A DNA stretch of 55,800 nucleotides, the filler included, from Dugesia japonica (taxonomy: Eukaryota): the NCBI GenBank assembly GCA_001938525.1. It is 5 parts of 5 records of this genome, joined end to end, with 100 filler letters (N's around TTAATTAATTAA, not from the genome) between each part and the next. Parts side by side here need not be neighbours in the genome. Positions count along the whole stretch, not along the records: positions 9,635 to 18,325 come from MQRL01563062.1; 4 more parts are not named here. The stretch is one strand, 5' to 3'. Made by a program: the position numbers and the translations under genes. This document shows, in pieces, positions 13,031 to 15,830 of this stretch (position 1 is the stretch's first letter; each line of letters opens with the position of its first letter). The notes under the pieces are model-generated. The model saw only the letters and a list, made by a program, of their open reading frames with translations, ran no database searches and was not told where the DNA came from.

Positions 13031-15830
13031 TGAGATTGAACGAGAGAGCGGCAAATAATAATAATGGTCACGGACGAGTGAATATGATGCCAGCAATTAA
13101 TGACCAAGAGGTAAAAATCAAAGAGAGTGAACAAGCTTCAATCAAACGACGAGTGGAAAGTATGCTCGATTTAATGCAAGGATTCAAAGGAACAATCGGC
13201 AGAAAACATTATTGGAAGTTAATAAATTATGTAATGGAACTAATGGAGTGTGGTCATCTAAGTCCAAGAACTAAAATGGAATGTCAACCAATGATCTGGG
13301 AGTATGAAAGTGAAATGCGAGACAAGGCAGTACCGGAAGACTTCAAACTCATAATCAATAAAATATTCAAAGAATTTAAAGAACCAGCTGAAGAAATAGT
13401 GCTGTGTTAGGTCACCTTACAAAACGATACGGTGAGGGACTATTGTGCGCTATTAAGAATAAAAACGTACTCGAAAGACCGCTGTATGATTATGTGATAT
13501 GTTCCAGGACGAGAGTAATCGAACAAGATGATACTGATGCGCATATAATGAATTATGGAATTCACTTGGACGTAAAGAAATAATACAAGTCTTAGATTTA
13601 ACAGAAATTTATAAAACAAAGCAATCAGTGTGGCATTATTTACAATTTCGAACAATGAAAAAGATAATGAAATCTTTTGAACAAAAATGCTACAGATACA
13701 CAATGGAAATACGAAAATTCATGACAACTGTTACATGAGATGGACAAACCGTAAAGCAATTTAACTTTGAACCAGCTAAATTGGCATCAAGTAGATCAGC
13801 TATAACTAGCAATAACGCTATCGAAAGAGAAATCAATCAGATGATGACAAGTTCAGCAATTATAAGTCCATGATGTAATTTAGGATTAATCGCACTAGTA
13901 AATATGATGACGATTAAAGAGATATCTGAGATTTAAGATGAAGTGGATGATACAATCCAAAGGAAATCGAGACAATAGAAGCCTTACTAAAGATAAAAAG
14001 AGGTATGAAGGAACCAATAGCGCCGATCAAAGATGGAAATGAATTAACAGAGGCTATCAACAAAATATTATCGATAACGCGAAATCTAAATGATAGATTA
14101 AACAGACGACGTTATTGGATGGCAATGAACCACTTGGCGGAGTTAACTGAACCAGGACACGTAGATACTACGATTAAAGAAAAGTGAAGACCATTGATCG
14201 AGAAATACAGGGCTAAGGTAATAGAGCAATCAAAAATCAAGGATTATTTTATCTAGATCGGAGAATCAATCCAGCCAATATAAATGATCAAAGAGATGTG
14301 GAATCCAGCAAACCCACAACCAATAATATTAAGAGCCAAAATGACAAAGTACCATTGTCCGAGAGTCGTGAAAATCAAAGGAACAACAATTAAAGATTTA
14401 ATTAAAGCATTGTCATAATTAGAATGGTCGAAACCAATAACAGAATATATAATACATACTCCAACAATGATTGTAGATTAAGGCGATGTAAATGAACATG
14501 TATATACCTATGGGTCAAACCAGGATTGGAATTGGAAATCAGATTGACTGACAAAGAACGAGTAAGTAACGATAAAGAAAAATTATGGACGCACATAGAT
14601 TATCGAGCAACCGAGGAAATTTTAAAATCGCTGTATGATAGTTATATAAGTTATATTGTGCCACTAATTAAAGAGATGAAACTCAAAGAGCAGCAAGATC
14701 AAATTGCAGAATCAAAGACAGAAGACGACAAACCTAGTACGAGTCAAGGAAGGTTATATTTGATGAGATCATTTTCAAACAAATTTTTGAGTAAAAGTAA
14801 AAACAGCCCGAAACAACCAACGAGTCTAACTGATATTAGTATGAGTGAATTGAGCGATACACCTGTAACAGTAGACGATGATTCAGATAACGAATATTAT
14901 CAAAATGTAGTAACTATANAAAATTATGTCAAAGAAACCTTACGTCGAAAAGAAAGAATCCCGAAGCAATCGTATTGGAGAATAATGAATATAGCGTGGG
15001 ATGAACATTATTATCAGTGGATGAGAGGAGCAAAACGCAGTGCCCACCCAGATTTAATTGATATGTATACAGAGCAAATAAAGGAGGAAACTAAGAGAGC
15101 AGAATTTGGAGTTAAAATTAATTATCCGACGATAGATGATGATTTAGTGACAACAATACAAACAAAAGTGATTGAAAGATTTAAGACGACAATTGTTGAT
15201 GAATTAAAAGATATTCTTAGTGAATTACCATTAGAACATGGATTAGAGCGATATAGAATAAAATGTGATTATCTGATAATAGAACGAGATAAATTGATTA
15301 ACCGAGAAATGCATTTAATTGAGTTCAAGTAAAGACCTGGAGAGATTACAGAATTAACATTGGAATATGATGATAAACAATCGAAAGATTTTAGGAAGTT
15401 ATAAGTTAGTAAAATGCGAGCAAAAATGAAAAAAGTGTATCAAGAGGAAATAGACTAATTCGAGTATTTAAAGTTAGTACATGATGATCAGAATGCGTTG
15501 ACAGCAACGACAGGAAACGAAATAGAACCTTGGTAAACGTTAAAGTGGAATTTAGCAAAATTTGGATTGGTAATATTGAATAATTTTCATTATATTAAAA
15601 TTAGAAAAATGAAAGAGGTGCTTGATCGGATGAATCAACTAGGGTTAATATTTGGAGAACATTTTAATGAAGCTGTAAGAGCAATAGTTTATTTACAGGT
15701 ATCTCAAATGCCTAAACAAGTAGTTAAAGTGACAGCACATTTTCCAGACAAATCGAGTAAAGAATTTGAAGTAACAAACGATGAGAAAATGGGAGAAATC
15801 GATAAAACAAATATTAAAGTATGTGAATAA
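13030..15830 (+). pseudogene. Gag C-terminal extension: three tandem modules (helical YW domain, ubiquitin-like domain, helical tail)
   Basis: Internal protein-level repeats: KHYWKLINY / RRYWMAMNH / QSYWRIMNI, each followed by a beta-grasp-like pattern (DTVRDL..NYGI; TTIKDL..YGVKPGLELEIRL; TIVDELKDIL..EFK.RPGEITELTL). Confidence 0.6.

Follow-up and report, generated by a model that had tools for sequence, protein, structure and literature searches.

The window analysed here is a 55,800-nucleotide stretch of Dugesia japonica DNA joined from five parts of assembly GCA_001938525.1. Within the part taken from MQRL01563062.1 it holds a dead copy of a many-copy Ty3/Gypsy long terminal repeat (LTR) retroelement, and behind Gag this copy carries a previously unassigned repeated module belonging to no known family. 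The copy is probably best understood as a Ty3/Gypsy first open reading frame (ORF1) extended by cargo in the manner of the planarian element Burro, with tandem orphan modules as the cargo. A sequence-only reading of the same DNA had proposed a Gag extended by three tandem modules with captured ubiquitin-like domains; the peptides that it quoted were all present where it had placed them.

The coding extension behind Gag and its repeats

Gag itself was recognised in Pfam by its zinc knuckles (zf-CCHC, E 6e-14, three stretches) and by a Retrotrans_gag match at E 0.0062, which is below the family cut-off. Behind it, stops are scarce on one reading path, which therefore represents a decayed long ORF and not a chance opening. 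The post-Gag path from 12847 to 15773 holds 16 stops in ~970 codons, and the chosen path from Gag to 15773 holds 24 in 1448. Between 14514 and 15773 there are 4 stops in 420 codons on the path, while the two alternative frames hold 55 and 50; the corresponding figures are 0 in 47 codons against 5 and 5 at 13440-13580, and 2 in 92 codons against 7 and 11 for the linker that follows Gag. The coding extension behind Gag is thus real.

To follow this path, frame changes are required near 12840, 13437, 13580, 13940 and 14512. These breaks and the stops look specific to the present copy. Of 1087 substitutions 40 were examined; the path takes in 38 of these, and stop codons are hit by 3 where 0.63 would be expected. 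At the break near 13437, among 12 examined of 43 insertions and deletions, 6-7 contigs differ in length.

For comparison of the modules, X was placed at every frame break. Modules 1 and 2 could be aligned over 187 residues, 45 of them identical, with a local score of 191 (z 30.6, 0/1000 shuffles), and the N part (z 16), the middle (z 10) and the tail (z 7.5) were each significant alone; by this measure the two modules are homologous. Module 3 scored 66 against module 2 (z 5.4, 0/1000 shuffles), which none of 1617 real window slices per module reached, and 53 against module 1 (z 3.3, 7/1000 shuffles), which was reached by 3 to 4 of the 1617. A hidden Markov model (HMM) of modules 1 and 2 placed it as the top non-self match among 738 six-frame slices, at an E value of only 0.095. 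The proposal of three tandem modules therefore holds for the first pair, module 3 appearing weakly related to them. At the DNA level no similarity between the modules was found, and so the duplications are old.

The stretch at ~15570-15690 resembles the tail of module 1 (z 4.45, 7/3000 shuffles) and gave no match with that of module 2 (z -0.8); the helical tail that had been placed directly after module 3 is found here instead. A fourth module start, suggested at ~15720, was not borne out, as it showed no similarity to the other module middles (z -0.2 to -1.2). Near 15775 other copies differ in length (four contigs making up 226 of 239 depth in DNA run X1), and the frame used in the sequence-only reading beyond that point is therefore probably out of phase. 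MAFFT alignments of the fragments were partly out of register.

In two DNA runs, X1 and X6, contigs were found on all 30 bins. The summed contig depth per bin over 11254-15889, which is not a copy number, was 652-9,399 in X1 and 810-7,989 in X6, as against 3.6-22 for single contigs. Depth this high points to a family with many copies, Gag and modules being about equally abundant in it. Near 15926 the summed depth climbs from ~5,500 to 373,701, and a much higher-copy repeat begins there.

Homologue searches were blank. No relatives were found of the module region in longer forms (0/3289 candidates), of module 3 at near length (0/56), of Gag in longer forms (0/780) or in metagenome and viral contigs (0/61 and 0/11). 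This is weak evidence, because the collections may contain little animal transposon sequence. The sole HMMER match over 1.84 billion representatives was to an unrelated repeat protein and was dropped, the NCBIfam matches were noise, and a BTB or BCL2 identity, considered by eye, was abandoned as Pfam gave no match.

The module middles and ubiquitin

By eye, the middles do follow ubiquitin P0007 in the order of their blocks: a helix, a Tyr-x-Ile strand, His-hydrophobic-x-x-aromatic, Pro-Gly and an alternating strand. The pattern is closest to ubiquitin in the middle of module 2, where 13 of the 17 core positions are occupied by hydrophobic residues. On global alignment to ubiquitin, modules 1, 2 and 3 gave z 0.1, 1.9 and 0.8, none of them significant; for module 2, 126 of 3000 shuffles were as good and 24 of 884 decoys scored as high. 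Alignment of the three modules to SUMO gave z -0.3 to 0.8. As a calibration, SUMO reached z 6.1 against ubiquitin, and 15 of 40 ATG8 sequences lay at z -0.8 to 3.6.

Profile methods gave the same picture. An HMM of 173 ubiquitin sequences assigned less than 1 bit to each of the three modules and 12 bits to SUMO, and in hhalign comparisons with the 173 ubiquitins 46 and 61 of 100 column shuffles scored as well. A post-hoc signature test was not significant (z 0.2-1.0) and had low power, SUMO itself reaching only z 1.8; hydrophobic moments were ambiguous. In Pfam the whole middle of module 3 matched 0 families, modules 1 and 2, scanned as pieces, gave no ubiquitin-type match, and PF11976 was not matched by any module piece scanned. 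Searches of the PDB by sequence and by profile matched no ubiquitin-type chain. As these tests catch SUMO and miss many ATG8 sequences, they exclude kinship at the level of ubiquitin and SUMO only, and not a remote beta-grasp fold. Judged from sequence, the modules do not come nearer to ubiquitin than ATG8 does, and the likeness proposed earlier stays a pattern seen by eye.

No Gly-Gly was found anywhere on the post-Gag path. This agrees with the sequence-only reading, in which the modules were described as lacking di-Gly, and separates them from the type I modifiers (ubiquitin, SUMO and NEDD8). As di-Gly is lacking, the modules are unlikely to be processed by ubiquitin hydrolases. This lack, together with a position amid helical segments, means that the middles cannot serve as the usual tags for conjugation or cleavage. 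That they are instead integral, non-conjugatable beta-grasp domains is a proposition for which the chances seem even; for the middle of module 3 taken by itself, the chances of a beta-grasp fold seem somewhat less than even.

The middle of module 3 (15066-15386, + strand) was also found to match two phage families without names, phrog_29711 (profile positions 4-114 of 120, 107 residues, E 4e-4) and phrog_5574 (E 3.6e-4). These matches are not common to modules 1 and 2 and are possibly compositional.

Known systems and competing explanations

In the part of PMC6431247 available, planarian Burro1 (GYPSM1), a giant gypsy-like LTR element, is described as having a Gag with three knuckles at the head of a 4,873-residue ORF1, whose cargo comprises MATH, Ubi2/SUMO-like (PF11976), BIR, ankyrin, BCL2-like and env regions. 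Its dUTPase sits between protease and reverse transcriptase (RT), the domains are taken as either accessory ORFs or polyprotein parts, and Dugesia japonica is reported to contain decayed copies interrupted by stops and frameshifts (PMC6431247). The present element resembles Burro in having Retrotrans_gag followed by three CCHC knuckles and a long stretch of cargo that separates Gag from protease. It differs in that no MATH, BIR, ankyrin, BCL2 or env match was obtained in the pieces scanned (12847-15918) of an ORF that is decayed and cut at ~15926, and in the lack of a dUTPase between protease and RT, a difference that counts only if the pol piece is of the same element. The ubiquitin-like motif of Burro is listed once in the available part of that account, which describes no tandem module, the comparison being one of descriptions and not of sequences (PMC6431247). 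As the other Burro cargo is not seen in the part present, the element has not been assigned to Burro; given the Ubi2/SUMO-like domain of Burro, a ubiquitin-like domain between Gag and protease would not be new.

With canonical Ty3/Gypsy elements (Metaviridae) the copy shares a Gag with knuckles and a protease joined to RT by a short linker; unlike them it has ~1,000 extra codons after Gag, and the window includes no RNase H, integrase or LTRs of the element. Type II (integral) ubiquitin-like domains and the RA, UBX and PB1 docking domains measure 76-90 residues and are embedded, without di-Gly. The modules are similar to these by eye in the order of their hydrophobic blocks, but matched them neither by profile nor by structure. 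In pestivirus polyproteins, inserted ubiquitin acts as a cleavage signal; it is near-identical to host ubiquitin and ends in di-Gly; the idea of a host-derived module within a polyprotein is common to both cases, whereas near-identity to ubiquitin and di-Gly hold for the pestiviruses only. Literature searches, made on listings apart from the PMC papers cited, showed neither the tandem orphan module nor any Gag ORF with ubiquitin-like domains in tandem; the domain maps of Grohme 2018 and Lee 2026 might already cover this family. A 2026 study cited in the available part of PMC13465017 reports that the IAP region of Burro1 protects planarian stem cells; the parts of PMC8532177 and PMC13238120 at hand add nothing on domains.

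Several results weigh against a Burro-like ORF1 carrying ubiquitin-like cargo. In none of the profile tests was a ubiquitin-type match obtained for the modules. The homologue searches yielded neither a protein relative nor an intact copy, by which the sequence-only reading had meant the fusion to Gag to be confirmed, and no listed contig spans the stretch. Two RNA runs (~25% and 6% read) gave a depth of 0-1.3 over 12962-15401, and the protease-RT piece, which lacks the dUTPase of Burro, may belong to another element. Structure prediction, proposed earlier as a check on the fold, was also unfavourable. AlphaFold was limited to module 3, the middle of which is read in a single frame, and gave a predicted local distance difference test score (pLDDT) of 40 from the single sequence; with a three-row alignment the model was a helix (residues 16-44) and a three-strand meander, at low confidence (pLDDT 54) and not a beta-grasp. 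Fold searches with this model found no clear structural neighbour, a phage model, I7DKB9, being matched weakly (E 0.008). The likelihoods given for the readings below and above address separate questions and do not add up to a whole.

The three-row model suggests that the fold of the modules is another or a new alpha/beta one, a long helix on a beta-meander between helical parts, and that their likeness to ubiquitin is due to chance. The non-significance of every statistical test against ubiquitin and the weak matches of module 3 to phrog_29711, phrog_5574 and I7DKB9 point the same way, and we regard this as a serious possibility, falling somewhat short of even chances. Much less credible is that three (or four) true ubiquitin-family domains were captured from the host and amplified, to serve in polyprotein processing or as proteasome/p97 ligands. 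The Burro precedent and the pattern in module 2, which only a small share of shuffles and decoys equalled, speak for such domains, whereas SUMO is readily detected by the alignment to ubiquitin that leaves the modules at background, the modules do not approach SUMO either, the whole middle of module 3 is without a Pfam match, di-Gly is lacking and the fourth unit is unsupported.

A separate question is whether the modules were ever joined to Gag. In this copy Gag stops at 12847. The linker is read in another frame and has ATGs overlapping the stop (12844-12849), so that the modules might form an accessory ORF of their own, translated by reinitiation, or be reached by programmed frameshifting, and so stay unfused; the domains of Burro may be accessory ORFs too, according to the available part of PMC6431247. 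On the other side, the Met-Met motif recurs within the linker, no slippery heptamer was found in 12650-13100, and the four further frame breaks downstream, all in the same direction, look like decay. Contig loose ends occur at 12839, and two X6 contigs, the only ones to bear on the point, differ from the present copy directly before this position in a codon phase that by eye fits read-on from Gag into the linker. Unfused modules are thus unlikely, and an in-frame fusion of Gag and modules, for which these two contig ends speak, is likely. Of the Gag extension proposed earlier, the coding, decayed long ORF stands and the fusion keeps this lesser standing. There is a good chance that ORF1 was translated as a single Gag-cargo(-Pol) polyprotein.

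If the cargo-extended ORF1 is accepted, the first ORF would not end with the zinc knuckles of Gag but lead on into cargo, as in planarian Burro, and the cargo would be a module of 190-220 residues that was duplicated long ago to give two clear copies and one divergent one. In live copies the long ORF1 would yield a Gag-cargo polyprotein, from which, as in the processing of Ty3/Gypsy proteins, the protease of the element might release the modules; alternatively, they might be displayed on the particle. Once released or displayed, they could bind host factors as protein-binding units. Should they be of beta-grasp type, they would be type II ubiquitin-like or RA/UBX-type docking domains, not cleavable ubiquitin tags, and their tandem arrangement would bring higher valency or further partners.

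A bolder version, to which we attach a low probability, is that of an undescribed animal (probably planarian) Ty3/Gypsy family whose Gag and tandem helical/beta-grasp modules make up a multivalent decoy or docking platform for proteins of the host ubiquitin system and so keep Gag particles from being degraded; this array would stand as a second and independent set of cargo alongside the apoptosis and ubiquitination domains of Burro. The cargo of Gag polyproteins reveals host systems that retroelements target, and an amplified orphan module in a many-copy family would be a second candidate functional cargo whether it proves a remote beta-grasp or a new fold. The surprise is limited by a dead copy, an unproven fold and a concept with precedent.

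Layout of the element and other features of the window

Table 1 Parts of the decayed element, numbered along the window
Feature	Position	Strand	Remarks
5' leader of element	10320..11419	+	22-nt tandem array at 11176-11270; 5' boundary approximate, by eye
Decayed Gag	11420..12847	+	8 internal stops; Ser-rich N part, gag region ~12044-12325, CCHC ~12610-12790
Linker, Gln/Asn-rich	12844..13125	+	probably coiled; repeated Met-Met motifs; one frame change from Gag
Module 1	13126..13735	+	N part and tail helical; alpha/beta middle at 13339-13603, the candidate ubiquitin-like segment; frame broken twice
Module 2, clear paralogue of module 1	14029..14690	+	middle 14320-14546; one frame break near 14512
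Spacer, Ser/Asp-rich, low-complexity	14691..14921	+	directly visible in sequence
Module 3, divergent	14922..15700	+	middle 15102-15365; tail like that of module 1 at ~15570-15690
ORF end with proposed fourth start	15717..15925	+	not homologous to modules; cut by insertion at ~15926
Unrelated high-copy repeat(s) and small gap interrupting element	15926..17100		depth jump; loose ends in RNA at 15926
Decayed aspartyl protease, short linker without dUTPase, RT start	17170..18090	+	RVP and RT matches; candidate for the same element copy

The protease that the sequence-only reading expected after Gag was found (RVP, E 0.018 in Pfam), 1.2 kb beyond the module ORF, and may belong to the same copy across the insertion. 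The start of RT gave weak matches to murine leukaemia virus RT (E 1.4e-4) and Ty3 Gag-Pol (E 0.028). In the 90-codon interval at 17430-17700 no dUTPase match was obtained in three frames. The RT sequence ends near 18090, where a tandem repeat and a gap follow. The element is truncated. No second copy of 9640-11420 that could be an LTR partner was found within the window. A purine-rich strand bias, uniform across 10-16 kb, speaks for the cargo-extended ORF1.

A 42-nt tandem repeat at 18212-18302, with GTTGCCATGGCAAC-type palindromes and in very high copy, truncates RT. Inside the insertion, 16492-16587 and 16917-17012 are two 96-nt copies that are 78% alike; near them lies TTTCCCGCC, presumably an E2F-like motif, with what we label CCAAT motifs also nearby. 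RNA reads of run X9 from a protease/RT family 80-90% alike cover 17110-18085 at a depth of 10-97 per bin, both directions summed, and a relative of the protease/RT piece is thus transcribed.

The window as a whole is AT-rich (GC content 0.297) eukaryotic scaffold DNA with intron-split host genes and many transposon fragments; for Schmidtea, the available part of PMC11410931 gives a genome of >70% A/T, and the composition of the window would thus suit a planarian. Linkers of N runs around TTAATTAATTAA stand at 9535-9634, 18325-18425, 31941-32040 and 43706-43805, and since the window is joined from short contigs, order across the TTAATTAATTAA linkers is uncertain. An identical 300-nt direct repeat at 1-300 and 8774-9073, 8.8 kb apart, is a possible LTR pair or assembly overlap. 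ORF pieces at 9875-10320, 32482-32883 and 37804-38298 (all + strand) resemble, by eye, fragments of a capsid and a DNA polymerase of Polinton/Maverick type; they had no Pfam support and only weak, unrelated PHROG matches. A DDE_1 transposase fragment (E 5e-7) lies at 48139-48699 (- strand). Of the host genes, 18370-26624 (- strand) holds exons of an SNF2 helicase (SNF2-rel_dom, E 2e-37), which we take to be of SWR1/SRCAP type, and 43125-43757 (+ strand) is an eIF3a exon (Pfam E 4e-60) scoring 210 bits to mammalian as against 115 to fungal eIF3a, and so animal-like.
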